From: an uncultured Bacteroidales bacterium
GTDB lineage: Bacteria; Bacteroidota; Bacteroidia; Bacteroidales; UBA10428
NCBI GenBank assembly: GCA_963705125.1
Contig: CAVPIY010000011.1
Coordinates: 350,953-414,952, forward strand
Length of the DNA stretch: 64,000 nucleotides
Direction of reading: 5' to 3'
Below the pieces are notes generated by a model. That model ran no database searches. It saw only the letters and a program-made list of their open reading frames with translations, and was not told the origin of the DNA. Position numbers and translations under genes: made by a program. This document shows positions 1,385 to 56,308 of the stretch, one piece after another (positions within the stretch are counted from its first letter, which is position 1; every line of letters starts with the position of its first letter).

Positions 1385-1599
1385 GTCATTGCGAGGGAGC
1401 AAAGCGACCGAAGTGATCCGTCATTGCGAGGGAGCAAAGCGACCGAAGTGATCCGTCATTGCGAGGGAGCAAAGCGACCGAAGTGATCCGTCATTGCGAG
1501 GGAGCAAAGCGACCGAAGTGATCCGTCATTGCGAGGGAGCAAAGCGACCGAAGCAATCTGTTTCTGATTGGCAGATTGCTTCGCTACGCTCGCAATGAC
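1385..1599 (+). repeat. Family-1 nested-palindrome repeat array (5 x 35 bp, closing into a complete 75-bp hairpin element)
   Basis: GTCATTGCGAGGGAGCAAAGCGACCGAAGTGATCC units start at 1385, 1420, 1455, 1490 and 1525. The last unit continues GAAGCAATCTG-tttctgattgg-CAGATTGCTTC-gctacg-CTCGCAATGAC. The array lies between convergent gene ends. Confidence 0.9.
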
Positions 1600-9481: not shown

Positions 9482-9527
9482 GATTAACTTTTTTCGAATG
9501 ATTATTATTAAGTAGTATCAATAACTC

Positions 9528-9565
9528 TAAGTACTTTAAGTACTCCAAGTACTCTAAGTACTTAG
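9528..9565. repeat. Family-4 9-bp tandem repeat (TAAGTACTY x4; AGTACT cores 9 bp apart)
   Basis: taagtactt taagtactc caagtactc taagtactt ag. The repeat overlaps the last codons and stop of 9554..10966. Confidence 0.85.
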
Positions 9566-18392: not shown

Positions 18393-18422
18393 ATTTATAC
18401 TTGTATAAACCAATCTCAACTT

Positions 18423-18449
18423 TAAGTACTCTAAGTACTTTAAGTACTT
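18423..18449. repeat. Family-4 9-bp tandem repeat (3 units)
   Basis: taagtactc taagtactt taagtactt. Lies between the stop of 18440..19486 and the start of 17031..18392. Confidence 0.8.
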
Positions 18450-21554: not shown

Positions 21555-21639
21555 GTCATTGCGAAGGACCCGATAGTTATCGGGGGACTGAAGCAATCTA
21601 CTGCAAATGAAAAGATTGCTTCGCTACGCTTACAATGAC
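21555..21639 (+). repeat. Family-1 nested-palindrome element, solitary degenerate copy
   Basis: GTCATTGCGAAGgaCCCGATAgtTATCGGGggactGAAGCAATCTactgcaaatgaaaAGATTGCTTCgctacgCTTACAATGAC. Confidence 0.8.
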
Positions 21640-29025: not shown

Positions 29026-32000
29026 ATGCATTATTCCTCCCCCTCCAGACTCCCCTTCCTGCTCCTCCTCACAACCATCACCCTTTCCAACTGCCGCCAC
29101 GAAGATCATCAGAAGGCATCAAACCCTGACGCCTTGTTCCGCATGATCCCACCCGAACAAAGTGGGATTCTATTCGCCAATACACTACAGGAAACAGACA
29201 GCTTCAATACCATATTCTACGAGTATTATTATAACGGATCAGGACTGGCCATCGGGGATGTGAACAATGACGGCTTCAGTGACATTTTTTTCGGGGCCAA
29301 CATGTCACAAAGCAAACTGTACCTGAATAAGGGCGGTCTGTCATTCGTGGATATCACGGAAAAATCCGGCATCAATACGTCAGGTAAATGGATCACCGGA
29401 GTCAGTTTTGTTGATCTGAACCAGGATGGATGGCTGGATATATATCTATGTGCGGGCGGGAATATTCACCAGGATTACCATAACCTTTTATATATCAGCA
29501 ACGGGAATAAGGAACAATTGACCTTTACCGAATGTGCGGCCCTGGTGGGACTTGATGATGACCGATATTCGACACAGGCAGAATTCTTTGATTATGACCG
29601 GGATGGTGACCTGGATGTGTATATCGTCACGTCAGCCATGAGCTTGCCCAATAAAAATGCTTTGCGCCTTCGAAAAAATGATGGGTCGATCATCAATACC
29701 GACCAGTTATACCGAAATGAAGGAACTGACCCGGAAAGCAAATTGCCTCATTTCCGGAATGTGTCGCGCGAGGCCTGCATTAACTGGGACGGATTCGGTC
29801 TTGGAAGTTGCGTTTGTGACATCAACCGGGATGGGTGGCCCGATATATATGTGTGCAACGATTATATTACCAATGACCTGTTGTACATTAATCAGCATGA
29901 CGGCACATTCAAAGAAATGATTAAAAACTACCTTAAACATATCAGCTACAGTACAATGGGTATGGATATAGCCGATTTCAATAACGATGGACTCATCGAT
30001 ATTTTTACGTTGGATATGCAGCCCGAGGATTATTACCGCAAAAGGATCATGGCCATGAATATGCGCAATTACGAAAGGTATTCGAAAGAACTGGATCTGG
30101 GTTACTCACCACAATACGTCCGTAACATGCTTCAGCTAAATAATGGAGAAATAGCCGGTGAATATTCCTTCAGCGAAATAGGTCAGCTGGCCGGTGTTTT
30201 TGAAACTGACTGGAGCTGGGCCCCGCTGTTCGCAGATTTTGATAATGACGGATACAAGGATCTATTCATTGGGAATGGCATACCGATTGACATGACCAAT
30301 ATGGACATTTCCGCACTACGACAAACGAAGCTAAAACAGAATCCTGAGATTGAATTCGGTGTACTGTATGAATTATTAATGAATTCTCTGGATAAGCAAG
30401 GAAATGTAAAAAAGCCAAATGTCATCTTTCGCAATTCGGGCGGACTGATATTTGAGAATAGAACTTCAGCCTGGGGTTTGGACCAGCCTTTGTACTCCAC
30501 CGGATCTGCCTTTTCAGACCTGGATAACGATGGTGACCTCGACCTGGTGCTGAACAATTTATACGATCCGGCCTCAATATATGAAAACACGGTAATCTCC
30601 AGGGATTCGGCAAGAAAAAACAGTCATTTTCTCTCTATTCAACTCCTTGGTTCGAAAACAAACAATGGGGGCATCGGCACAAAAATCAGTATTTACTGCA
30701 AGGGCAAGCTTCAGTATTACGAACATTTTCCCATCCGGGGATTTCAATCCATGGTCGATCCGCGGATCCATTTCGGACTCGGGGCAGATACACTGGTTGA
30801 TTCTTTGAAAATAAGCTGGCCTGATGGGAAAGAGCAAAAGATGGGCAAGCTGCATGTGGATCAGTTTTTATCCCTGAATTATTCAGATGCCTCATCTACA
30901 GTGAAGCCCGGAATTATTCAGCAAAAAAGTACTACAGCCTTCACAAACATCACCGGCACTAACAAATTGGAATACAGGCATCGTGAACAGCAGTTTATCG
31001 ATTTTGATATACAGCCCCTTATCCCGCATCAATTTTCAAGGGAAGGACCGGGCCTTACCGTGGGGGATATTAATTCCGATGGACTGGAGGATGTTTATAT
31101 AGGTGGATCAACCGGATACCCGGGCAGAATATTTATTCAGGAAAGGGCTGGCAATTTCATAACCTACGTCTTGCCTGGTAAGAGTGATTTTGAAGATATG
31201 GGTGTATTGTTATTTGATGCCGATACCGATGGCGATCAGGATCTTTACCTGGCCAGCGGCGGAACTGGTTTAACTCCCGATAATCCGATGTATGCCGACC
31301 GGCTATTTATTAATACCGGACAGGGTAAATTTGTAAGCAGTCAGAATGCCTTGCCCGATATCCGGGTATGCAATTCACAGGTTACAGCAGCTGATTTTGA
31401 CAGGGACGGAGACCTGGATCTTTTTGTATGTGGCCGTGTTGATTTTGAGAAGTACCCCTTACCTCCGCGAAGTTATTTGTTGCGCAATGACAGCCAGGGT
31501 TCCGCTGTTCAATTTACAGATGTTACCAGTCAGGTCTGCAGGGACCTGGAACGGCCGGGGCTGGTTGCCGCGGCCCTGTGGACCGACTTTTACCAGGATG
31601 GCTGGCCCGACCTGATCCTGGCCGGTGAGTGGATGCCACTTACCTTCTTCCGGAACAACCAGGGTAAGCTCACCAATGTTACCGCATCAACCGGACTGGA
31701 AAATTATACCGGCTGGTGGAACAGCCTCACCGCTGCAGACTTCGATAAGGACGGCGATATAGATTATGCCGCCGGGAACTTCGGGTTGAATACCCATTAC
31801 AAAGTCTCCCAGGAACAGCCCATGCGGATCACCGCCCTGGATTTCGACAGGAACGGGACGCTCGATCCGGTTTGCAGCTATTATGTGCAGGGGAAAAGCT
31901 ATCCCATTTATCACCGGAATTTGCTGCTGGAGCAGATCCCCTCCCTGAAGAACAGATTCAAAACCTATGAGGCTTATGCCCGGGCCGCCCTGGAGGACAT

Positions 32001-32628
32001 CTTCCCTGAGAACACGCTGAAGGATGCCTATATCCGCGACAGCCGGTTCTTTGAATCGGCCTGGATCGAAAACCTGGGCAAGGGATCCTTCCGGATGCAT
32101 GCCCTCCCGGTTGAGGCACAGATCGCTCCTGTTTTCGGCATGCTGGCCAATGATTATGATGCGGATGGGAATACTGATCTGTTGCTGACGGGCAATTCCT
32201 ATTCATTCAATGTGTATGACGGACAGCAGGATGCCTTTATTGGCCTGTGGCTGAAAGGGGACGGCAAGGGCGGATTTACTCCGGTCCAGGGGCGGGAAAG
32301 CGGTTTTTTTGTCGACGGGGATGCAAAAGCACTGGCTGAACTGGTGCTGGGCAATGGCAGTTCTCTGATCCTGGCAGCGCAGAACTCCGGCTACCTGAAG
32401 GTATTTAAAGTTGCCGGATCAAACGCCAAGGTAATCAGGCTCCAAAAGGACGATGTCAGTGCCGAGCTGAGCTATGAAAACGGCCGGAAGGAATACCGGG
32501 AGTTCTACTACGGCAGCGGCTATTTGTCCCAGTCATCACGGGTGATCAAAGTACCCAAAGAGGTAACATCAGTGAATATAGTTAATTACAAAGGAGAAAC
32601 CAGAAAAATTACCGTTCATAATCAATGA
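29026..32628 (+). CDS. VCBS/FG-GAP repeat plus ASPIC/UnbV-type lipoprotein (CRTAC1-like), paralogue 1
   Basis: Lipoprotein signal (TLSNC). Reiterated GDVNNDG/DFDNDG/DLDNDGD calcium-binding FG-GAP motifs. Central HFLSIQL...GIGTKISIY module. Confidence 0.8.
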   Translation: MHYSSPSRLPFLLLLTTITLSNCRHEDHQKASNPDALFRMIPPEQSGILFANTLQETDSFNTIFYEYYYNGSGLAIGDVNNDGFSDIFFGANMSQSKLYLNKGGLSFVDITEKSGINTSGKWITGVSFVDLNQDGWLDIYLCAGGNIHQDYHNLLYISNGNKEQLTFTECAALVGLDDDRYSTQAEFFDYDRDGDLDVYIVTSAMSLPNKNALRLRKNDGSIINTDQLYRNEGTDPESKLPHFRNVSREACINWDGFGLGSCVCDINRDGWPDIYVCNDYITNDLLYINQHDGTFKEMIKNYLKHISYSTMGMDIADFNNDGLIDIFTLDMQPEDYYRKRIMAMNMRNYERYSKELDLGYSPQYVRNMLQLNNGEIAGEYSFSEIGQLAGVFETDWSWAPLFADFDNDGYKDLFIGNGIPIDMTNMDISALRQTKLKQNPEIEFGVLYELLMNSLDKQGNVKKPNVIFRNSGGLIFENRTSAWGLDQPLYSTGSAFSDLDNDGDLDLVLNNLYDPASIYENTVISRDSARKNSHFLSIQLLGSKTNNGGIGTKISIYCKGKLQYYEHFPIRGFQSMVDPRIHFGLGADTLVDSLKISWPDGKEQKMGKLHVDQFLSLNYSDASSTVKPGIIQQKSTTAFTNITGTNKLEYRHREQQFIDFDIQPLIPHQFSREGPGLTVGDINSDGLEDVYIGGSTGYPGRIFIQERAGNFITYVLPGKSDFEDMGVLLFDADTDGDQDLYLASGGTGLTPDNPMYADRLFINTGQGKFVSSQNALPDIRVCNSQVTAADFDRDGDLDLFVCGRVDFEKYPLPPRSYLLRNDSQGSAVQFTDVTSQVCRDLERPGLVAAALWTDFYQDGWPDLILAGEWMPLTFFRNNQGKLTNVTASTGLENYTGWWNSLTAADFDKDGDIDYAAGNFGLNTHYKVSQEQPMRITALDFDRNGTLDPVCSYYVQGKSYPIYHRNLLLEQIPSLKNRFKTYEAYARAALEDIFPENTLKDAYIRDSRFFESAWIENLGKGSFRMHALPVEAQIAPVFGMLANDYDADGNTDLLLTGNSYSFNVYDGQQDAFIGLWLKGDGKGGFTPVQGRESGFFVDGDAKALAELVLGNGSSLILAAQNSGYLKVFKVAGSNAKVIRLQKDDVSAELSYENGRKEYREFYYGSGYLSQSSRVIKVPKEVTSVNIVNYKGETRKITVHNQ

Positions 32629-32657
32629 AACAGGAGTTAGATCCAAAAAGTCCATCC

Positions 32658-32961
32658 GTCACGGCGAGGGAGCGAAGCGACCGAAGCGTCATTGCGAGCG
32701 CAGCGAAGCGAGTCAACGTCATTGCGAGGGAGCGAAGCGACCGAAGCGTCATTGCGAGCGCAGCGAAGCGAGTCAACGTCATTGCGAGGGAGCGAAGCGA
32801 CCGAAGCAATCTGCATCTGGTTGGCAGATTGCTTCGTCGTGTTGTGCGTCATTGCGAGGGAGCGAAGCGACCGAAGCAATCTGCATCTGGTTGGCAGATT
32901 GCTTCGTCGGCATGTAATATTATATTAAAAAAAGTCATTCTGCTCGCCTCCTCGCAATGAC
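32658..32961 (+). repeat. Family-1 repeat array (alternating 30-bp variants, then two hairpin elements)
   Basis: Cores at 32658 (degenerate), 32688, 32718, 32748, 32778 and 32848. Closes with CCTCCTCGCAATGAC at 32961. Confidence 0.9.
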
Positions 32962-32971
32962 GATTCCCTTC

Positions 32972-33488
32972 GTCATTGCGAGGAGACATGATACTGGTCT
33001 CTGCCTTGCAAAATGAAATTGTCGACGAAGCAATCTATTTGATTTATACATATTTTTTCGATACATTAGACATATTGAAAAATAGTTAACGGGTATTGTT
33101 ATTTACATGCAAAGAGGTGGTTGTGTTTATATTATGACCAATAATAACAACACAGTTCTTTATACTGGAGTTACAAGCAATCTGAGTAAAAGAGTTTCAG
33201 AACATAAGGAACGATTACATCCTGAATCCTTTACAGCTAAATACAATGTTGTCAAACTTGTTTATTATGAAGGATTTGATCATATCGAAGAAGCTATTGC
33301 ACGGGAAAAGCAGATTAAGGGAGGATCCCGAAAGGATAAGATCCGATTGATAATACAGATGAATCCGGAATGGGAGGATTTATATGACAGAATATGTGGA
33401 TTTTGATGATGTGCAAGGATTCAGATTGCTTCTTCAGCGCAATGCGTTTTGCTAAACTGAATAATACTATTCGCTTCCTCGCAATGAC
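32972..33488 (+). mobile_element. Putative autonomous family-1 unit: nested-palindrome ends enclosing a GIY-YIG gene (copy 1)
   Basis: Left end GTCATTGCGAGGAGAC (32972) with GAAGCAATCT at 33027-33036. Right side CAGATTGCTTC (33422-33432) with CTTCCTCGCAATGAC ending at 33488. Homologous over its whole length to 55763-56277. Confidence 0.45.
33107..33406 (+). CDS. Stand-alone GIY-YIG nuclease-domain protein (COG2827/YhbQ-like), 99 aa
   Basis: GCVYIMTN..VLYTGVTSNLSKRVSEH...YYE...EEAIAREKQIKG matches the GIY-YIG motif order. Confidence 0.8.
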   Translation: MQRGGCVYIMTNNNNTVLYTGVTSNLSKRVSEHKERLHPESFTAKYNVVKLVYYEGFDHIEEAIAREKQIKGGSRKDKIRLIIQMNPEWEDLYDRICGF

Positions 33489-33856
33489 GCCTGATTTGCT
33501 CGCCTCCTCGCAATGAAGTATCATTAAATCATCATACCTGCCCGGCCTGCAGGAAGGTCATTAAATAAACAAATGCCGAATTATGAATATTAGTATTAGA
33601 AATTTAAATATTAGTATTATATCCGAATAATCCTTTTCAGTATGTTTAATTACGATTTTATTCTGATTTTTATCATGTAATTTAAAAATATTTAAATCTG
33701 ATTTACATTCTTTTATACTTAAATTTTTCGCGGATAATAATAGTATGATTTACTATTCTGGTTATGTTATAATTTATCCGGAATAAAAATATTGTTGTTA
33801 GACTTTTTTTTAATTATTTTTAGTGGAGTTTTCTTAACCCTAAACCTTGAAAACAA

Positions 33857-38580: not shown

Positions 38581-38999
38581 TATCTGGTTGGCAGATTGCT
38601 TCGTCGTGTTACGCGTCATTGCGAGGGAGCGAAGCGACCGAAGCAATCTGTCCACCCCGTCATTGCGAGTCCCGTTCACGGGACGAAGCAATCTGTCCAC
38701 CCCGTCATTGCGAGTCCCGTTTACGGGACGAAGCAATCTGTCCACCCCGTCATTGCGAGTCCCGTTCACGGGACGAAGCAATCTGTCCACCCCGTCATTG
38801 CGAGTCCCGTTCACGGGACGAAGCAATCTGTCCACCCCGTCATTGCGAGTCCCGTTCACGGGACGAAGCAATCTGTCCACCTCCGTCATTGCGAGTCCCG
38901 TTCACGGGACGAAGCAATCTGTATCAGGATAACAGATTGCTTCGTCTGCATGTAGTATTATTCTATATAGATTCATTCTGCCTGCCTCCTCGCAATGAC
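38581..38999 (+). repeat. Family-1 repeat array (1 x 44 bp plus 6 x 45 bp units with a private GC hairpin, closing into a complete element)
   Basis: Cores at 38615, 38659, 38704, 38749, 38794, 38839 and 38885. Unit is GTCATTGCGA-GTCCCG-ttca-CGGGAC-GAAGCAATCTGTCCACCCC. Ends CCTCCTCGCAATGAC at 38999. Confidence 0.9.
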
Positions 39000-41900
39000 G
39001 TTTAATGCCAACTTATAAATCCTCACCGAATCATTATTCAGTGCAAAAACCAGGATGTCTTTTCCGATTGCCGACCTGATATGGGCAATGTCCCTTACTT
39101 CGCCATTTACATGTAACCCACTTTGAATATCGTTCATCACAGCAAAATCCCCTTTCCCGTTCCCGGTAAGTAACAATCCTTTATTGGCATCATATTCTCC
39201 GAATCTGAGCCGGGTACCAAAGAAATTGCCTGCCAGGATCAAATCCACATTGCCATCCTGATTGTAGTCCCCGGCCTGTATGGCATAAACTGGAGAGAAC
39301 TGGGTGACAGGGGGAAGAGGAGAAAGGGAGAACTGATCGTTCCCCTTGTTTTCAAGATAACAACTGGCAAAGACAAAGGCTTTGAGAACCAGAGCGTCCT
39401 TTAATTCTTCCGGTGAAAACATGTCAGTAATCGTCTGACTGGCATAGGACTCATAGGTAGGATATTTCTTTTCAAGGATGGGCAATTGTCGCTGCAGATC
39501 ATCTTTTGGGTAAATTGGGTAGCATTTTCCCTGGATGTAAGAGCACATCACCGCATCGATCGATCCATTGTTATCAAAATCTTTGGCATACAGGGTGACC
39601 GGTTCAGTAACGGATGTCTTTAAGCGGGAATTCAAGCCCAGGTTCCCGACAACGTAGTCCTGATCACCATCGTTGTCAAAATCTGCTGCTGAAATGGAAT
39701 TCCACCAGCCTGCTGAATTTTTCAGGCCACAATTGTCAGTGATTTCAGTTAGACGCTTGCCGGTATGCATAAAAATCCGTATGCTCATCCATTCCCCCAC
39801 GATAATAATATCCAGCTGCCTATCTCCGTTGATATCGGTCCATAACGCATCCGTTACCATACCCGGATTCATCAGGGACTTATTATAGTTCTCAGTTACA
39901 TCTTTGAAATATCCCTTACCATTATTTTCCAGCAGATAGCTTCTCGGTATCAAGGGGTAAGATCCAGGCACCAGCCTGCCCCCAACAAAAAGATCCAGGT
40001 CACCGTCATTATCTACATCGCCTGCCCTGACACAAGAACCGCTGGTCAGCATCACGGGAAGCTGATCAGCTGATTTTGTAAAAAGCCCCTTCCCGTTATT
40101 GAGGTATAATCGATCCTGCAGTTCAGGGGCATCCTTCGGAAATTCATTTCCTCCGCTGACTACATATAAATCCGGATCAGTATCCCCGTCAGCATCAAAA
40201 AATACGGCTCCTATATCCTCACAACCTTTGTCTTCTTCAAAGCAAGACTGTATCTGCAAGCCAAAAGATCCGTCCTTTTTCTGAATATACAGGCTGCCCG
40301 GACTATCCCTGGCACCACTGAAATACAAATCCTCCAGACCGTCTTTGTTTATGTCTCCTTTAGCAATGTGTGGTCCCTGGGTGGAAAGAAGATGATGCAA
40401 AAGAATTTGTTTCCTGAAATCGACATATTCATTTTCAACATGCTTATAGTCAAGTATCTTACTATTCAAAGGAACAAAAACGGGTCGATATGATTGGACT
40501 GTTACCTCTTTGAGCGGATGTGCATTCTTTTGATGAAGAATAAGGGTTTGATCTGCAACGACCTTTTTAAATACCTCTTCAAGCAAATCAGGCCAGATCA
40601 CCTTCAGTGAATCAACTTGGGTTGATTTGCCCAGGCCAAAAATCAGCTCGTGATTCACGGAGGACATGTATCCCCGTGAAGGCATGAATTCCTGTATATA
40701 AATCTGATCTTTGCAAAAAACTTCCACCTTAGCGCCGATTCCACCCCGGTTCAAACCTGATCCATCGAACCTGATTTTTAAGAAGTGATTCAGGTTGCGT
40801 TTGCTTGCGTTATTCCGGTAAATAAAGGCATAAGAATTGACATTGTTGGTTACTATATCCATATCCCCGTCATCATCCAGATCGGCATAGGCAGCTCCGT
40901 TGGAAAATGACAGGATCTCTTCTCCCCACTCCTCAGTCACATTGGTAAAAGTCAGGTCTCCGTTATTCCGGTAAATATAGTTTTTCAATACAGTGGGGGG
41001 GATTTTTTCGATCAGCTCCAATTTGGTCATGGTATGTCTGCCGGTACGCCTCCTGTCTTCCTCCAATGCAACAAGCCTGATAAAATCCAGGTTGGTATTG
41101 TTCTTCCAGAATCCGGTGGTAACATACAGATCCTTGTATCCGTCATTGTCAAAGTCACAGAAGAGAGGCCCCCAGCTCCAGTTGGTGGCGAAAATCCCCG
41201 AGTATTGCCCGATCTCTGTAAAATATTCTCCGAGGTTATTCACATGCAACATGTTACGGGTAACCTGGCCCTGAAACACCTTATTCTTAAGCATAAAATA
41301 ATTACCCGGATTATCCGGCCGGGCTACCAGCTTCTGTTCATAATTATCCTCCGGAAGCATGTCCGGGGTCATCAGATCAATGTACCCGTCATTGTTAAAG
41401 TCAGCCGCATCATTGCCCATGGATGCAAAAGGGGTATGTTCAAAAAAGGCATCCAGCTCATCCCTGAAAGTGCCGTCTTTTTGGTTGATATACAGACGGT
41501 CTTTCACAAAATAATCCTGGCAGACATAAATATCCGGCCAGTTGTCCTGGTTAAAATCGGCTATGGCCAGTCCCAGTCCGTAATACGTTGAACTGGGGAT
41601 CATTCCTGCTTCCCTGGAAACATTGACAAACCTCTCACCGGTGTTCTTGTACAATTGCTCCCCGAATCTTCTGCTGGTCCCGGTCATCATGCTCATCCGG
41701 TTTATCAGGGGCCCTTCAGCGATGTGATTCAGAACAAGCAGGTCAAGGTCACCGTCTTTATCATAATCAAAAAAAGCACTGTGTGTGGAATGAAAGGGAT
41801 CGTCGATACCATATTTTGCAGCACATTCTGTAAAAGTAAGGTCCCCTTCATTGATGAAGAGCTGATTTCTTCTTTTTTCGGGATTGCCTGAGGCAGCATG

Positions 41901-42296
41901 GCAAACATAGATGTCGAGAAATCCGTCTCCATTGATGTCCGCCATGATAACACCGGTATTCCACCTGTCTCCGCAGTTTACCCCAGCTTTATCCGTGATA
42001 TCCTCAAATCTGAATTTGCCCTTGTTCAGATACAGTTTGTTTCCAGTGAGGTTCCCACTAAAGAAGATTTCCGGCAAACCGTCATTGTTAAGATCACCAA
42101 CAGCCACCCCCCCTCCGTTATAGAAATAGGCATAGTCAAGCACATTGAATTTTTCACTGTCCTTGACCATATTTTTGAAATCGATCCCTGTTCTCAGGTG
42201 TGAGAGCGATGTGAATAGCTTGCCCTTATCCTGTTTACAGCAAGGAGAAATTAATATTATCAATAGAATAATATAACCAATTGGGATACGCTTCAT
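38973..42296 (-). CDS. VCBS/FG-GAP repeat plus ASPIC/UnbV-type lipoprotein, paralogue 2 (inverted)
   Basis: Lipoprotein signal (LISPCC). The same FG-GAP motif series and HFLKIRF...GIGAKVEVF module. The last 9 codons lie in the family-1 right arm. Confidence 0.8.
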   Translation of the reverse strand: MKRIPIGYIILLIILISPCCKQDKGKLFTSLSHLRTGIDFKNMVKDSEKFNVLDYAYFYNGGGVAVGDLNNDGLPEIFFSGNLTGNKLYLNKGKFRFEDITDKAGVNCGDRWNTGVIMADINGDGFLDIYVCHAASGNPEKRRNQLFINEGDLTFTECAAKYGIDDPFHSTHSAFFDYDKDGDLDLLVLNHIAEGPLINRMSMMTGTSRRFGEQLYKNTGERFVNVSREAGMIPSSTYYGLGLAIADFNQDNWPDIYVCQDYFVKDRLYINQKDGTFRDELDAFFEHTPFASMGNDAADFNNDGYIDLMTPDMLPEDNYEQKLVARPDNPGNYFMLKNKVFQGQVTRNMLHVNNLGEYFTEIGQYSGIFATNWSWGPLFCDFDNDGYKDLYVTTGFWKNNTNLDFIRLVALEEDRRRTGRHTMTKLELIEKIPPTVLKNYIYRNNGDLTFTNVTEEWGEEILSFSNGAAYADLDDDGDMDIVTNNVNSYAFIYRNNASKRNLNHFLKIRFDGSGLNRGGIGAKVEVFCKDQIYIQEFMPSRGYMSSVNHELIFGLGKSTQVDSLKVIWPDLLEEVFKKVVADQTLILHQKNAHPLKEVTVQSYRPVFVPLNSKILDYKHVENEYVDFRKQILLHHLLSTQGPHIAKGDINKDGLEDLYFSGARDSPGSLYIQKKDGSFGLQIQSCFEEDKGCEDIGAVFFDADGDTDPDLYVVSGGNEFPKDAPELQDRLYLNNGKGLFTKSADQLPVMLTSGSCVRAGDVDNDGDLDLFVGGRLVPGSYPLIPRSYLLENNGKGYFKDVTENYNKSLMNPGMVTDALWTDINGDRQLDIIIVGEWMSIRIFMHTGKRLTEITDNCGLKNSAGWWNSISAADFDNDGDQDYVVGNLGLNSRLKTSVTEPVTLYAKDFDNNGSIDAVMCSYIQGKCYPIYPKDDLQRQLPILEKKYPTYESYASQTITDMFSPEELKDALVLKAFVFASCYLENKGNDQFSLSPLPPVTQFSPVYAIQAGDYNQDGNVDLILAGNFFGTRLRFGEYDANKGLLLTGNGKGDFAVMNDIQSGLHVNGEVRDIAHIRSAIGKDILVFALNNDSVRIYKLALNVIARRQAE

Positions 42297-42434: not shown

Positions 42435-42588
42435 ACCTCACCCCTGCCAGACGGCAAGAAGATACTGCCTGTCTCCACCTCACCCCCTGCCCCCTCTCCT
42501 AAAGGCGAGGGTTGTGAGGTTATCGTTGACATGGTTGATTCCATTGACGTTTTCCCCCTCTCCTCAAGGAGAGGGGCAGGGGTGAGGT
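42435..42588. repeat. Family-2 MITE-like element, copy 4, with an extra partial left arm
   Basis: A partial ACCTCACCCCTGCC at 42435, then the full element CCACCTCACCCCCTGCCCCCTCTCCtaaaggcGAGGG ... CCCCCTCTCCTCAAGGAGAGGGGCAGGGGTGAGGT. Confidence 0.8.
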
Positions 42589-42649
42589 GGAGAGGAGCAG
42601 GATTGAATTTATAAAGGCCCTTCTGACATTTCTAAAAAGCTTGCACAAA

Positions 42650-45600
42650 ATGCAAATTGCCAACTTTTTCAGGATTTTCGCGATGATGTTATTCACAGGA
42701 ATCCTCCTATTAAACTGCCATCAGCAAAATCATCAAAGCGAATCTCAAAAAGCCACCCTGTTCCGTGAGGTCTCCCCAAAGGAAAGCGGCATCCGGTTTG
42801 CAAACCAGTTGCAGGAAACAGACACCGCCAATTCGATCTTTTATGAATATTACTACAACGGGGCCGGACTGGCCATCGGAGATGTCAACAATGACGGCCT
42901 GAGCGATTTATTCTTCGGGGCAAACATGACGGAAAGCAGGTTGTACCTGAACAGGGGAAATTTATCCTTCTCCGATATCACGGAGGAATGTAGTATCAAC
43001 ACTTCCGGAAAGTGGGTCACCGGTGTCAGCCTGGTGGATATCAACCAGGATGGATGGCTGGATATATACCTGTGCTGTGCCGGCAATATTGATTATGATT
43101 ACCATAATCTCCTGTATATCAGCAATGGTGACAGGGATCACCTGGTATTCTACGAACAGGCTGCTGCGGTGGGTCTGGATGACGACGGATACTCTACACA
43201 GGCAGAATTCTTTGATTATGACCGGGATGGTGACCTCGATGCCTATATTGTTACTGCAGCCCTGACCATTCCAAATAAAAACGCCCTGCGGATGCGCAAA
43301 AGCGACGGATCGATGATCAACACCGATCGCCTGTTCAGGAATGAAGGGATTAACCCAAAAACCAAACTGCCTGTTTTCAGGAATGTATCAAAGGAGGCCG
43401 GCATCACCTGGGACGGGTTTGGCCTTGGCGCAAGTGTCTGTGACATCAACCGGGACGGATGGCCGGATATCTATGTGGGTAATGATTATATTTCAAATGA
43501 TCTTCTGTATGTAAACCAGGGTGATGGCACCTTTAGGGAAATGGTGAAAAACTACACCAAACACATCACCAACAGTACAATGGGCGTTGACATTGCTGAT
43601 ATCAATAACGATGGGCTGGTGGATATACTGACCCTGGATATGCAACCCGAAGATTATTTCAGAAAAAGGACAATGGCCCTGACCATGCGCACTTACGACC
43701 GCTATATGAAGGAGCTGGATGCAGGTTACTCGCCCCAGTATATCCGGAATATGCTGCAAATGAATAACGGAGAGATAGAAGGACAGGTTACTTTCAGTGA
43801 TATCGGACAACTGGCAGGTGTTTTCGAGACTGACTGGAGCTGGGCTCCCCTGCTGGCTGACTTTGACAACGACGGAAACAGGGACCTGTTTATCGGCAAT
43901 GGCATTCAGCACGATATGACCAATATGGACTTTTCAGAGTTCTGGATGAAAAAAGTCAGGGAGAATCGCGGAATGGAATGGAGTGTGCTGTATAAAATAT
44001 TAAAGACTGAACTGGATAAAAAAGGCAATGTTAAAAAGCCGAATGTCATCTTCCGGAATTCAGGCGGTCTTGTATTTGAGAATAAGACCATCGAATGGGG
44101 CATGAGCAGGCCTGCGTATTCAACCGGCTCTGCTTTTTCAGACCTGGACAATGATGGTGACCTTGATCTGGTATTGAACAACATCAATGATCCGGCATTG
44201 GTTTATGAGAATACCCTGATCAATGCGGACTCTGTAAACCGCAGTCATCATTTTCTTTCCATCCAACTGATGGGGGATTCATTAAATCCGGATGGCATCG
44301 GTGCAAAGATCAGTATATTCTGTGGAAAACAGCTGCAGTACTATGAACATTTCCCCATCCGGGGATTTCAATCCATGGTTGATCCGAAAATTCACTTCGG
44401 GTTGGGAGAGATCACCCTGATTGATTCGCTGTTGATCTGGTGGCCGGACGGAAAGGAGCAGCATTTATATAAGTTGACCAGTGATCAGCTTTTATCGCTC
44501 CACCATGATCAGGCATCCCTTATCACCAAACAAAAAACTGTGAAGGATAGCAAAAACAAGATCTTTACCTCCCTGACCGGTAAAACAAGAATAGAATACA
44601 AGCATCGGGAAAAACAATTTGTCGATTTTGAAATTCAACCCCTGGTCCCGCATCAATATTCCCGGGAAGGACCGGGCCTTGCAGTGGGAGATATTAATTC
44701 CGACGGCCTGGATGATTTCTTTGTGGGAGGATCAACCGGCTTTCCGGGAATAATATTTCTTCAGGATAAAACAGGCAGCTTTGCTTCTTCCCCTTTGCCC
44801 GGTAATAGTAATTATGAAGATATGGGTTCGCTGTTCTTTGATGCGGATGGTGACGGCGATCAGGACCTGTATGTGGTAAGCGGTGGTTCCGGATTACAGC
44901 CCGGCAATCAGTTCTATGCCGACAGACTGTATATCAACAACGGCAAGGGTCAGTTTACCATGCACAATATTGCACTGCCTGATTTCCGGGTGTGTGGTTC
45001 ACAGGTTACCGCTGCAGATTACGACAAGGATGGAGATCTGGATCTGTTTGTCTGTGGCAGGGTTGACCTGGAGAAATATCCGATGCCACCCAGAAGCTTC
45101 CTGCTCAGAAACGACACCAAAGGTTCGATCATTCGTTTTCTCGACGTTACCAGTCAGGTCTGCAGGGACCTGGAACGGCCGGGGCTGGTTGCCGCGGCCC
45201 TGTGGACCGACTTTTACCAGGATGGCTGGCCCGACCTGATCCTGGCCGGTGAGTGGATGCCACTGACCTTATTCAGGAACAACCAGGGTAAGATGGAAAA
45301 TGTGACCTCGTCCACCGGACTGGAAAATTATACCGGATGGTGGAACAGCCTCACCGCTGCAGACTTCGACAAGGACGGCGATATAGATTATGCCGCCGGG
45401 AACCTGGGATTGAACACCCAGTATAAAGTATCGCAGGAACAGCCCATGCGGATCACAGCAAAGGATTTCGACAGGAACGGGACGCTGGATCCGGTTTGCA
45501 GCTATTATGTGCAGGGGAAAAGCTATCCCATCTATCACCGGAATTTGCTGTTGCAGCAAATCCCATCCCTGAAAAATAAATATAAAACATATGAAGATTA

Positions 45601-46252
45601 TGCCCGGGCAACCATGGATGACATCTTCCCTGTAAATACACTGAAGGATGCCTATATCCGCGACAGCCGGTTCTTTGAATCGGCCTGGATCGAAAACCTG
45701 GGCAAGGGATCCTTCCGGATGCATGCCCTCCCGGTTGAGGCACAGACCGCTCCGGTATTTGGCATGCTTGCAAATGATTATGATGCGGACGGGAATATAG
45801 ACCTTCTGTTGACGGGCAATTCCTATTCATTCAATGTGTATGACGGACAGCAGGATGCCTTTATTGGCCTGTGGCTGAAAGGGGACGGCAAGGGCGGATT
45901 TACTCCGGTCCAGGGGCAGGAAAGCGGTTTTTTTGTCGACGGGGATGCAAAAGCACTGGCAGAACTGGTGCTGGGCAATGGCAGTTCGCTGATCCTGGCA
46001 GCGCAGAACTCCGGCTACCTGAAGGTATTTAAAGTTGCCGGATCAGATGCAAAGATAATCAGGCTCCGCAATGATGATGTCATTGCAGTGCTGACCTATG
46101 AAAACGGCCGGAAGGAATACCGGGAGTTCTACTACGGAAGCGGCTATTTGTCCCAGTCATCACGGGTGATCAAAGTACCCAAAGAGGTAACATCAGTGAA
46201 TATAGTTAATTACAAAGGAGAAACCAGAAAAATTACCGTTCATAATCAATGA
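42650..46252 (+). CDS. VCBS/FG-GAP repeat plus ASPIC/UnbV-type lipoprotein, paralogue 3
   Basis: The ATG at 42650 gives signal MQIANFFRIFAMMLFTGILLLNC. The ORF-track start at 42587 lies inside the MITE. The 3' 1.1 kb is nearly identical to paralogue 1. Confidence 0.8.
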   Translation: MQIANFFRIFAMMLFTGILLLNCHQQNHQSESQKATLFREVSPKESGIRFANQLQETDTANSIFYEYYYNGAGLAIGDVNNDGLSDLFFGANMTESRLYLNRGNLSFSDITEECSINTSGKWVTGVSLVDINQDGWLDIYLCCAGNIDYDYHNLLYISNGDRDHLVFYEQAAAVGLDDDGYSTQAEFFDYDRDGDLDAYIVTAALTIPNKNALRMRKSDGSMINTDRLFRNEGINPKTKLPVFRNVSKEAGITWDGFGLGASVCDINRDGWPDIYVGNDYISNDLLYVNQGDGTFREMVKNYTKHITNSTMGVDIADINNDGLVDILTLDMQPEDYFRKRTMALTMRTYDRYMKELDAGYSPQYIRNMLQMNNGEIEGQVTFSDIGQLAGVFETDWSWAPLLADFDNDGNRDLFIGNGIQHDMTNMDFSEFWMKKVRENRGMEWSVLYKILKTELDKKGNVKKPNVIFRNSGGLVFENKTIEWGMSRPAYSTGSAFSDLDNDGDLDLVLNNINDPALVYENTLINADSVNRSHHFLSIQLMGDSLNPDGIGAKISIFCGKQLQYYEHFPIRGFQSMVDPKIHFGLGEITLIDSLLIWWPDGKEQHLYKLTSDQLLSLHHDQASLITKQKTVKDSKNKIFTSLTGKTRIEYKHREKQFVDFEIQPLVPHQYSREGPGLAVGDINSDGLDDFFVGGSTGFPGIIFLQDKTGSFASSPLPGNSNYEDMGSLFFDADGDGDQDLYVVSGGSGLQPGNQFYADRLYINNGKGQFTMHNIALPDFRVCGSQVTAADYDKDGDLDLFVCGRVDLEKYPMPPRSFLLRNDTKGSIIRFLDVTSQVCRDLERPGLVAAALWTDFYQDGWPDLILAGEWMPLTLFRNNQGKMENVTSSTGLENYTGWWNSLTAADFDKDGDIDYAAGNLGLNTQYKVSQEQPMRITAKDFDRNGTLDPVCSYYVQGKSYPIYHRNLLLQQIPSLKNKYKTYEDYARATMDDIFPVNTLKDAYIRDSRFFESAWIENLGKGSFRMHALPVEAQTAPVFGMLANDYDADGNIDLLLTGNSYSFNVYDGQQDAFIGLWLKGDGKGGFTPVQGQESGFFVDGDAKALAELVLGNGSSLILAAQNSGYLKVFKVAGSDAKIIRLRNDDVIAVLTYENGRKEYREFYYGSGYLSQSSRVIKVPKEVTSVNIVNYKGETRKITVHNQ

Positions 46253-46281: not shown

Positions 46282-46446
46282 GTCATTGCGAGGGAGCGAA
46301 GCGACCGAAACGTCATTGCGAGGGAGCGAAGCGACCGAAACGTCATTGCGAGGGAGCGAAGCGACCGAAACGTCATTGCGAGGGAGCGAAGCGACCGAAA
46401 CAATCTGCCTCTGGATAGCAGATTGCTTCACTTCGCTCGCAATGGC
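46282..46446 (+). repeat. Family-1 repeat array (4 x 30 bp, closing into a 75-bp element)
   Basis: GTCATTGCGAGGGAGCGAAGCGACCGAAAC at 46282, 46312, 46342 and 46372. Then CAATCTGcctctggatagCAGATTGcttcacttcgCTCGCAATGGC. Confidence 0.9.
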
Positions 46447-55286: not shown

Positions 55287-55762
55287 GTCATCGCGAGGAG
55301 ACGTTTCCCCGTCATTGCGAGGAGACGTTTCCCCGTCATTGCGAGGAGACGGGATAATTCTCTCTGCATTGTAAATTGATAACGTCGACGAAGCAATCTT
55401 TATCTGGTTAACAGATTGCTTCGTCAGCGTATAGTATTTTGCCTTACTGAATAATATAACTCGCTTCCTCGCAATGACGATTCTCTCCGTCATTGCGAGG
55501 AGACGTTTCCCCGTCATTGCGAGGAGACGTTTCCCCGTCATCGCGAGGAGACGGGATAATTCTCTCTGCATTGTAAATTGATAACGTCGACGAAGCAATC
55601 TTTATCTGGTTAACAGATTGCTTCGTCAGCGTAAAGTATTTTGCCCTACTGAATAATATAACTCGCTTCCTCGCAATGACGATTCTCTCCGTCATTGCGA
55701 GGAGACGTTTCCCCGTCATCGCGAGGAGACGTTTCCCCGTCATTGCGAGGAGACGTTTCCCC
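55287..55762 (+). repeat. Family-1 higher-order array: 24-bp left-arm stutter plus two 144-bp gene-less elements (202-bp period)
   Basis: Cores at 55287, 55311, 55335, 55489, 55513, 55537, 55691, 55715 and 55739. Gene-less elements at 55335-55478 and 55537-55680. Confidence 0.9.
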
Positions 55763-56277
55763 GTCATTGCGAGGAGACGGGATAATTCTCTCTGCATTGT
55801 AAATTGATAACGTCGACGAAGCAATCTGTTTGATTATTACATAATTTTTTATAAATTAGGCATATCGAAAAATCGTTATATGCAATCTTTAATTATATGC
55901 AAAGAGGTGGTTGTGTATACATTATGACCAATAAGAACAACACTGTTCTGTATACCGGCGTTACAAGCAATCTTAGTAAGCGGATTTCAGAACATATGGA
56001 ACGATTTCACCCTGAGTCATTTACAGCTAAATACAATGTTGTCAAACTTGTGTATTATGAAGGATTTGATCATATCGAAGAGGCTATAGCACGGGAAAAG
56101 CAGATAAAGGGAGGATCCCGAAATGATAAGATCGATTAATAACCCAAATGAATCCTGATTGGGAGGATTTGTATGACAGGATCTGTGGATTTTGATGCTG
56201 TTGGGTGATACAGATTGCTTCGTCAGCTTGTGGCAATTTGCTTAACTCAATAATTCTATTCGCTTCCTCGCAATGAC
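55763..56277 (+). mobile_element. Putative autonomous family-1 unit enclosing a (frameshifted) GIY-YIG gene (copy 2)
   Basis: GTCATTGCGAGGAGACGGG... at 55763, then GACGAAGCAATCT, the ORF, ACAGATTGCTTC, and CTTCCTCGCAATGAC ending at 56277. Confidence 0.45.
55897..56195 (+). pseudogene. GIY-YIG nuclease-domain gene with a 1-nt deletion near its 3' end
   Basis: 80 codons match 33107-33406. GATAAGATC-GATT replaces GATAAGATCCGATT, giving TAA at 56137-56139. NPDWEDLYDRICGF* is still readable in the -1 frame up to 56195. Confidence 0.7.
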
Positions 56278-56308
56278 GTCTGGTCTGCATGCAGGCTCGC
56301 AATTAGGG

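Follow-up and report, generated by a model that had tools for sequence, protein, structure and literature searches.

In a 64,000-nucleotide stretch of the genome of an uncultured Bacteroidales bacterium (contig CAVPIY010000011.1, positions 350,953 to 414,952), hereafter called the window, a 517-bp unit at 32972-33488 (unit 1) consists of nested inverted repeat arms around an intact open reading frame (ORF) for a 99-aa GIY-YIG protein. To judge from sequence, the ORF very probably encodes a member of the Ssn family of nucleases, and the arms would be its cognate recognition repeats (SRM) in a divergent, bipartite form. The pairing of gene and repeats, SRM-ssn-SRM, was published in 2025, and the window unit is a new, somewhat divergent example of it, not a new kind of system. 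The positions that an initial annotation of the window had given for the unit, its cores and its ORF were all reproduced by core mapping, ORF calls and Pfam.

The protein was characterized by domain, structure and family searches. Pfam detected the GIY-YIG domain over residues 5-77 (E 1.6e-17) with no further domain, and Pfam and NCBIfam together assigned only this generic domain. The AlphaFold2 model of the 99-aa protein (predicted local distance difference test, pLDDT, 93.5) forms one compact domain. When the model was ranked with Foldseek, UPF0213 BH0048 was closest, followed by the nuclease domain of Slx1, with UvrC and I-TevI lower. The N-terminal motif M[KEQ][RK]GGx[VI]YI is conserved from the ATG at 33107, and Y8, Y19 and E67, together with R29, H33 and N86, are invariant among 28 homologues. 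An exact-protein look-up found no record identical to the window ORF or to the SusC protein of the window. The 99-aa protein matched no PADLOC model and no PHROGs family, so it is not a catalogued defence or phage gene. An Rfam search over the window gave no family at the gathering threshold, and around the unit only a chance match to a microRNA (E 0.78).

Ssn proteins were described by Chenal et al. (Nat Commun 2025; PMC11893778) as single-domain GIY-YIG nucleases of about 94 aa. SsnA of Neisseria meningitidis (94 aa, CDD cd10448) binds the hairpin repeat NTS (CGTCATTCCCGCGMAVGCGGGAATCYRG) solely as single-stranded DNA (ssDNA) and cuts a few nt upstream of it, on that strand only; double-stranded DNA (dsDNA), RNA and the reverse strand are not cut (PMC11893778). 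Cutting depends most on the three nt before the palindrome, and binding most on the C right after it. Homologues across phyla are flanked by SRM on at least one side in 71% and on both sides in 42% of cases, the gene is present in 81% of SRM-rich genomes, and three further homologues each cleave their own repeat (PMC11893778). In Neisseria, SsnA lowers transformation by repeat-bearing DNA. The authors liken NTS-ssnA-NTS to an insertion sequence (IS) and to the RAYT/REP (repetitive extragenic palindrome) pair, with no mobility shown (PMC11893778). The statement in the initial annotation that no repeat-related role is established for this nuclease family is therefore out of date, since Ssn nucleases have been shown to bind and cut ssDNA beside repeats (PMC11893778). 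Its label 'COG2827/YhbQ-like' proved imprecise, UPF0213 being only a distant relative (profile E 1e-6) and the published family being CDD cd10448.

Assignment of the window ORF to this family is supported by direct comparison with Neisseria. Searched against the N. gonorrhoeae chromosome by tblastn, the ORF gave a match of E 6e-16, which lies inside the published limit for homologues (tblastn E < 1e-10; PMC11893778). The gonococcal locus holds a 94-aa ORF with Y6, Y17 and E64, the residues mutated in the published work (PMC11893778), and within 3.2 kb of this ORF there are nine canonical NTS repeats. By BLASTP the window ORF is 45% identical to this SsnA orthologue (E 2e-25), and Y8/Y19/E67 align to Y6/Y17/E64. 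The orthologue comes from one of two N. gonorrhoeae chromosomes of 2.17 Mb that PLSDB catalogues, almost unannotated, as plasmids (NZ_CP119140.1 and NZ_CP119142.1; L168). The window unit likewise has inverted repeats on both sides that form hairpins and carry an oriented GTC tag.

The arms were then compared with the NTS. The arm has the layout 5'-(C)GTC, ATTGC-GAG ... CGAA-GCAAT, C(T). A profile of 202 arms has a sharp conservation edge at C (72%), followed by G, T and C (100% each); after this tag come ATTGCGAG, an interior of 6-93 nt (median 16.5), CGAAGCAAT, and a C conserved in 91%. The Neisseria NTS, which reads CGTC, ATTCCCGCG..GCGGGAAT, C, has the same logic. Because the arm follows it, each arm's 'outer' and 'inner' cores together make up the base of a single hairpin, and short arms do fold, weakly, in this outer-to-inner register. 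Left and right arms are in turn complementary to each other and form one long nested hairpin. Two such arms, inverted and with their tags outward, enclose the gene in the unit (SRM-ssn-SRM), whereas a pair with no gene makes the short hairpins and single arms make the arrays. Literature matches to the arm sequences as strings were unrelated primers only. An I-TevI-like CNNNG cleavage motif was dropped as too frequent by chance.

The window system thus shares with the published one a GIY-YIG protein of one domain and 94-99 aa whose catalytic residues agree, a gene between inverted hairpin repeats with a (C)GTC tag, an ATT...AAT palindrome and then C, many extra intergenic repeat copies and clusters, and a repeat that co-varies with the enzyme. 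It differs in that the arm has a 5-bp ATTGC/GCAAT closure and a long interior, whereas the NTS has a compact 8-bp stem and a 4-nt loop. The protein carries KGGSR in contrast to KKWNRAWK of SsnA. The host belongs to the Bacteroidota, with no transformation role known, whereas SsnA modulates transformation in Neisseria.

Association of the gene with its repeats across phyla

Whether the gene and the arms go together outside the window was determined by a survey of homologues. A word-indexed search gave at least 8,000 candidates, and a full HMMER scan yielded 18,542 clusters (50% identity) at E <= 1e-3 and 6,763 at E <= 1e-10. Eighty loci with 53-71% identity to the window ORF were taken from contigs of one genome per species, from about ten phyla (Bacteroidota, Chlorobiota, Omnitrophota, Chloroflexota, Cyanobacteria, Melainabacteria, candidate phyla radiation (CPR), Planctomycetota and Proteobacteria). 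The same 11-mer arm was present within 400 bp of the gene and in the correct orientation on both sides in 58 of the 80 loci and on at least one side in 68, against a background of 0.11 per kb at more than 1 kb from the gene. At many loci no core other than the bracketing pair occurs within 10 kb. Most homologues thus carry the arms, and the proposal of the initial annotation that the gene goes with them was not refuted.

An unbiased search for exact inverted matches of at least 10 nt found one bracketing the gene at 111 of 148 loci, compared with 9 of 87 far flanks, and CGTCA was the most frequent outer terminus of these matches. Loci with no canonical arms had variant arms that retain the CGTCA...TGACG tag. 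A metagenome scan seeded with these variants revealed loci with compact hairpins on their flanks (CGTCATTCCTGCGCAGGCAGGAATCT, TGTCATTCCCGCGAAAGCGGGAATCCA and CGTCACCCTGAATTTATTTCAGGGTCTT among them), and the window ORF is 55-60% identical to metagenomic homologues flanked by NTS-like REPs. The link between gene and repeat is not due to chance.

The type of repeat follows the type of protein. Proteins with K[GASN]G[SN]R at residues 71-75 were accompanied by ATTGCGAG-type arms in 103 cases and by the compact REP type alone in 0. Proteins with KxWxRxWK, gonococcal SsnA included, were found with compact REP hairpins 24 times and never with ATTGCGAG arms, and KKYRREKK proteins pair with GTCACTTCGAA arms. 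These counts are not independent events, because the protein types are clades. The segment that reads KGGSR in one type and KxWxRxWK in the other is a good candidate for the specificity determinant.

The gene is under strong constraint in several genera. The ratio of nonsynonymous to synonymous substitution rates (dN/dS) was 0.03-0.16 in syntenic orthologues of Flavobacterium, Chryseobacterium, Nostoc and Pedobacter, and the arms are nearly invariant while the adjacent intergenic DNA diverges. The arms of Nostoc (L066 4598-5755 and L076 4681-5750; loci of the survey are numbered with L) read GTCATTGCGATCGC, with the cyanobacterial HIP1 palindrome GCGATCGC fused into the arm. In PLSDB the arms and the gene are rarely on the same plasmid record, which says nothing about their association, since the gene may be chromosomal. 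A 33-nt arm of the Chryseobacterium type recurs at 100% identity (33/33) in a gene-less hairpin of a Methylosinus plasmid, so that the element has nearly the same sequence on this alphaproteobacterial plasmid as on chromosomes of Bacteroidota. On plasmid pOB3b1 of Methylosinus trichosporium OB3b (L169 599-683) a gene-less inverted dimer lies between convergent genes.

Comparison of related loci revealed insertion polymorphism, for gene-bearing and gene-less copies alike, when filled and empty sites were sought as the initial annotation had proposed. Locus L011 carries an intact 647-bp unit, whose right end is tandemly duplicated over 129 bp, where the syntenic L059 has an empty site. The junctions of this insertion are at the outer arm ends, and the ancestral copy of the gene in L011 is a pseudogene. 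An 85-bp gene-less hairpin is present in L065 and missing from the orthologous spacer of L071 and L067. In L081, a relative of the window that is 79% identical across SusC/SusD, a gene unit occupies the site where the window has an array and a gene-less hairpin (38583-38999). Contigs with an identical protein vary in the number of upstream arms, and where two Nostoc strains differ by indels, direct arms mark the boundaries. In the contigs that carry protein P0003 (L082-L087), the unit directly follows a tRNA gene with its terminator and precedes a fragment of a phage-integrase gene, in the order left arm, gene, left arm, loop, right arm; L085 has a different upstream context from the promoter region of the gene on.

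Repeats and a second gene-bearing unit in the window

The cores are strongly overrepresented in the window. The outer core occurs in 42 copies at <=1 mismatch, against 1.08 expected, and the inner core in 26, against 0.22 expected; no shuffle reached either count. The repeats are strictly intergenic and cluster beside surface and polysaccharide-utilisation genes. Table 1 lists the units, hairpins and arrays.

Table 1. Units, arms, hairpins and arrays of the window, with z for the ssDNA fold relative to shuffles
Feature	Position	Strand	Description
Four complete tandem arms, 35-bp period, then gene-less hairpin 1525-1599	1385-1599	+	Between convergent genes; z -7.2
Solitary degenerate gene-less hairpin	21555-21639	+	Between divergent genes; z -5.9
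Tandem left-arm array, 30/60-bp period	32657-32847	+	Ends in a hairpin copy without right outer core, 32778-32847
Gene-less inverted dimer (hairpin)	32848-32961	+	Short left arm, 13-nt loop, long right arm; fold -35.6 kcal/mol, z -8.9
Left arm, unit 1	32972-33036	+	Tag and outer core (C)GTCATTGCGAG 32972-32982; 44-nt interior; inner core GAAGCAATCT 33027-33036
ssn gene (Ssn family, probable), unit 1	33107-33406	+	Intact, 99 aa, single-domain GIY-YIG
Right arm, unit 1	33422-33488	-	Inner core AGATTGCTTC 33423-33432; outer core CTCGCAATGAC 33478-33488
Extra degenerate right outer core TTCATTGCGAG	33507-33517	-	Counterpart remnant after the second unit, ~56296-56306
Loop and right-arm fragment, seven tandem arms, gene-less hairpin 38885-38999	38583-38999	+	z -7.7
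Three 30-bp tandem arms, then gene-less hairpin 46372-46446	46282-46446	+	z -4.8
Two 202-bp repeats (24-bp arm arrays and long-arm gene-less hairpins 55335-55478, 55537-55680)	55287-55762	+	z -8.4, -5.3
Second gene-bearing unit	55763-56277	+	Same arms as unit 1; ssn gene 55897-56195 broken

The second gene-bearing unit is 84.5% identical to unit 1 end to end over 517 bp, arms and non-coding spacers included. Its ssn gene has a 1-nt deletion that leads to a stop after 80 codons. The two units lie at unrelated loci amid polysaccharide-utilisation genes (SusC/SusD, FG-GAP/ASPIC, GH123, URO-D). The earlier account of the window was right on the anatomy of the repeats but lacked this second unit and the tandem left-arm arrays.

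The seven gene-less hairpins of that account all exist, and at every one of the seven sites a 13-nt loop separates the inner cores. Their ssDNA folding is more stable than that of shuffles (z from -4.8 to -8.9). The loops resemble one another and not the ends of the gene cassette, and no convincing match was found in the window units for a derivation of the 13-nt loop from those ends. Hairpin 32848-32961 is connected to unit 1 by the 10-nt linker GATTCCCTTC. The long-arm gene-less hairpins (55334-55479 and 55536-55681) are predicted to fold as four-way junctions made up of outer and inner stems and two side hairpins. The closest characterised fold of the 99-aa protein, Slx1, cuts branched DNA, and the long-arm hairpins are predicted to be branched.

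Tandem left-arm arrays precede every gene-less hairpin except 21555-21639, with periods of 24, 30/60, 35 and 45 bp and with the arms in one orientation. The array before unit 1 starts at 32657 and not, as reported earlier, at 32688. In the array at 38583-38999 the first arm is in the short-arm form and is followed by six 45-bp units, and a further 24-bp arm array occupies 55691-55762. All five arrays (1385, 32657, 38583, 46282, 55287) have the tag strand on + and start 8-86 nt past the stop codon of a + gene. A replication-strand bias is not readable from GC skew, because the skew tracks gene orientation in the window.

The arrays also bear on the annotation of neighbouring genes. ORFs 32625-32960, 32609-32879 (-), 55444-55824 (-) and 55676-55807 (43-126 aa) are translated arm arrays and not genes, with peptides such as VIARERSDRS... 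and LLAMTGKR.... Many database proteins of the ssn family carry N-terminal extensions of 40-80 residues that come from arm translation, P0028 being one. The minus-strand FG-GAP/ASPIC gene 38973-42296 stops within the right arm of a hairpin (38973-38999), so that the repeat supplies its last nine or so codons and the stop. The FG-GAP/ASPIC paralogues 29026-32628 and 42587-46252 have near-identical 3' ends and a shared spacer of about 30 nt, and both run into an arm array; either the array was carried along by the duplication, or the same insertion point was offered twice. Unrelated 9-bp tandem repeats (ACTCTAAGT and ACTTTAAGT, 3-4 copies) occur at the gene boundaries 9524-9562 and 18419-18449.

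Possible mechanism and alternative explanations

By homology to SsnA, the protein would bind the arm solely in ssDNA and nick only the strand that bears the GTC tag, a few nt 5' of that tag. With outward-facing tags, the two nicks would be placed on opposite strands, immediately beyond the ends of the unit. It is a matter of conjecture that repair synthesis into the arm might be primed from the 3' ends that such nicks leave in the flanks; this would explain why arrays always begin at the tag, why ends are duplicated and how copies could enter homologous arms. The comparative data suggest that the arm-gene-arm module may act as a compact IS-like or REPtron-like element, which reaches new sites, decays into pseudogenes and persists for long periods under purifying selection. 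Gene-less arms would most likely spread and turn over through nicks followed by host repair or recombination. The data show homology, architecture, conservation, co-variation and polymorphism, and mobilisation of the repeats is a hypothesis.

We tentatively put forward a broader proposal: that SRM-ssn-SRM is a mobile element of a new enzymatic class, with a GIY-YIG single-strand nickase in the place of an HUH enzyme, that the CGTC-tagged REPs of many phyla, the palindromes of the window included, are its non-autonomous progeny, and that residues 71-78 are a specificity switch that lets enzyme and repeat co-diverge.

Several observations weigh against family membership or against mobility. To our knowledge, GIY-YIG enzymes are hydrolytic, with no known strand transfer, and offer no ready model for a 'paste' step. 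No clear target-site duplication accompanies the one clean insertion (L011 versus L059). The long syntenic persistence in Flavobacterium, Chryseobacterium and Nostoc suits a domesticated host function equally well. A single arm folds weakly on its 5-bp closing stem. Stability comes with the long hairpin that both arms form together, and there the tag is base-paired, which it is not in the NTS. Recognition may for these reasons differ in detail from that of the NTS. Finally, the published SRM search string, HGTCWYN(0-2)YYVSBRHN(0-5)WNVSBRGN(0-2)RNCYNB, has 0 matches in the window (shuffles average 0.27) and in 0 of the 80 genome loci; it matched 3 of 80 metagenome loci and, at the gonococcal locus, gave 9 matches, finding all NTS. 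Membership in the Ssn family is still assigned, as the string is a search aid and not the definition of the family. Mobility is favoured by multi-copy units, pseudogenes and new insertions, a host role by constrained syntenic persistence.

The strongest form of the mobility argument holds that the unit is a fully autonomous selfish transposable element, whose nuclease serves as a 'transposase' and mobilises the gene-less hairpins in trans, in the manner of miniature inverted-repeat transposable elements (MITEs) or REPINs. This is conceivable, and we give it appreciable though not leading credence. A complete unit is inserted in one of two syntenic relatives and missing from the other (L011 versus L059), the same unit type occurs in unrelated contexts and as pseudogene copies, and homologues are often on very short contigs, as is seen with multi-copy repeats. 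The mutual likeness of the gene-less loops suggests propagation as gene-less units, and the IS-like architecture was remarked by the Ssn authors (PMC11893778). However, no transposition event or intermediate has been observed anywhere, no target-site duplication was seen at the clean insertion, and the enzyme is a nicking hydrolase without known joining activity. Single-copy, syntenic and strongly constrained genes in several genera look domesticated, and the indels in arrays are explained by ordinary recombination between direct arms. The initial annotation had read the architecture as an autonomous element with MITE-like derivatives; the gene between inverted arms and the gene-less copies were borne out, while the reading as an element is still hypothetical.

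The same constraint would be expected of a domesticated function in ssDNA restriction or the control of recombination, in which the enzyme cuts incoming repeat-bearing ssDNA during transformation or conjugation, the repeats mark regions of limited exchange, and the position of the gene is a relic or regulatory. It is the sole role shown experimentally for the Ssn family, in Neisseria natural transformation, and it agrees with the strong purifying selection and long syntenic retention; the intergenic repeats beside surface and polysaccharide-utilisation genes also resemble the NTS clusters beside membrane-protein genes. We consider it rather unlikely, because it leaves unexplained the multiplication of the repeats and their co-variation with the enzyme, as well as units at new sites and the decay of pseudogenes. 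No PADLOC defence model matches the protein. Natural transformation is, as far as we know, not a general property of Bacteroidota.

Since GIY-YIG is the classic fold of homing endonucleases, and the gene is always between two arms, we also considered a homing-like selfish gene that cuts the empty palindromic hairpin, its target, and is copied in at repair. The orthologous site that bears the gene in L081 and is gene-less in the window would fit such a process, as would the gene-less hairpins at 55335-55680, whose long arms are those of the adjacent gene unit. GIY-YIG homing enzymes such as I-TevI and Seg, however, combine the nuclease with a DNA-binding domain, whereas the window protein has a single domain and lacks theirs; its closest folds are UPF0213 and Slx1, and I-TevI ranks below these and UvrC in the fold search. 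Members of the Ssn family do not cut dsDNA (PMC11893778). In L011 the arms came together with the gene, the L059 site having no hairpin, and many genomes show only the two gene-bracketing arms within 10 kb. The family is almost absent from phages, with one weak match among 50,697 phage records. Homing is therefore improbable. Coincidence, that is, ordinary terminator-like or REP-like intergenic hairpins with a small ORF among them by chance, would suit hairpins that are intergenic and often just past stop codons, but it is ruled out almost completely by the same arms bracketing homologues in about ten phyla, often as the sole two copies in 10 kb, by bracketing of 75% against 10% in the far-flank control, and by the perfect partition of repeat type with protein motif.

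Relation to known systems and significance

The repeats were compared with the REPs described by Di Nocera et al. (BMC Genomics 2013; PMC3733652), which carry a CGTC tag and for which no dedicated transposase was found. They are defined by a terminal CGTC or TGTC tag and a stem of 8-9 bp, whose first bases are A and T, with a 4-5-nt loop; they occur in Bacteroidetes, Chlorobi, Proteobacteria and other phyla, mostly as head-to-head dimers and clusters, and CGTC-1 was equated with the dRS3 repeats of Neisseria (PMC3733652). Our comparison rests on this verbal definition. The window arms have in common with these REPs the terminal CGTC tag, a palindrome beginning AT, the dimers and the range of phyla, but lack the compact 8-9-bp stem, having instead the 5-bp closure and long interior. 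The compact stem is present at the arms that flank homologues L091, L097, L098, L103, L117, L148 and L163, and textbook REPs, e.g. CGTCATTCCTGCGCAGGCAGGAATCT, flank some homologues of the window gene. No associated enzyme was named in PMC3733652, and PMC11893778 does not cite that work. We infer that Ssn is the missing partner enzyme of the CGTC REPs.

REPtrons and REPINs resemble the window system in that inverted copies of the dominant hairpin repeat flank a nuclease gene, that inverted dimers also occur without a gene, that the hairpin foot bears a conserved tetranucleotide tag, and that the activity is on ssDNA; they too are often single-copy, syntenic and vertically inherited. REPtrons, however, use an HUH/Y1 transposase with a covalent intermediate and a GTAG tag, whereas the window has a GIY-YIG hydrolase and a CGTC tag, so the resemblance is one of architecture only. 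The parallel with REPtrons in the initial annotation was apt, and the Ssn authors draw the same one (PMC11893778). Of the features of an insertion sequence, inverted termini and one clean insertion are present; no duplication of more than about 1 nt can be seen, and the enzyme falls in no recognised transposase class. The nearest solved structures are those of UPF0213/YhbQ (PDB 1zg2, 1ywl; for 1zg2, profile E 1e-6 and Foldseek E 5e-4) and Slx1, whose nuclease domain matches the fold with a probability of 0.97-1.0 and has the same minimal GIY-YIG core. Both differ from the window protein in that identity is only about 20-26% and no repeat association is known, and Slx1 requires Slx4 and a RING domain and cuts branched dsDNA.

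These results extend the Ssn nuclease-repeat pairs to a large clade centred on Bacteroidota, in which the repeat is longer and bipartite. Because bipartite arms are invisible to the published search motif, surveys based on the SRM motif will undercount the family. The evidence goes beyond that of the founding paper in three respects: units at sites empty in relatives, decayed old copies, and a protein segment that tracks the repeat type. This segment is a candidate specificity determinant for engineering ssDNA cutters. For genome annotation, many 'hypothetical proteins' across arm arrays are translated repeats. The loci described here also provide a testable route to the question of whether Ssn enzymes spread their own repeats. 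If SRM-ssn-SRM units do form a GIY-YIG class of mobile elements, this would answer the question raised in 2013 of what propagates the CGTC REPs.

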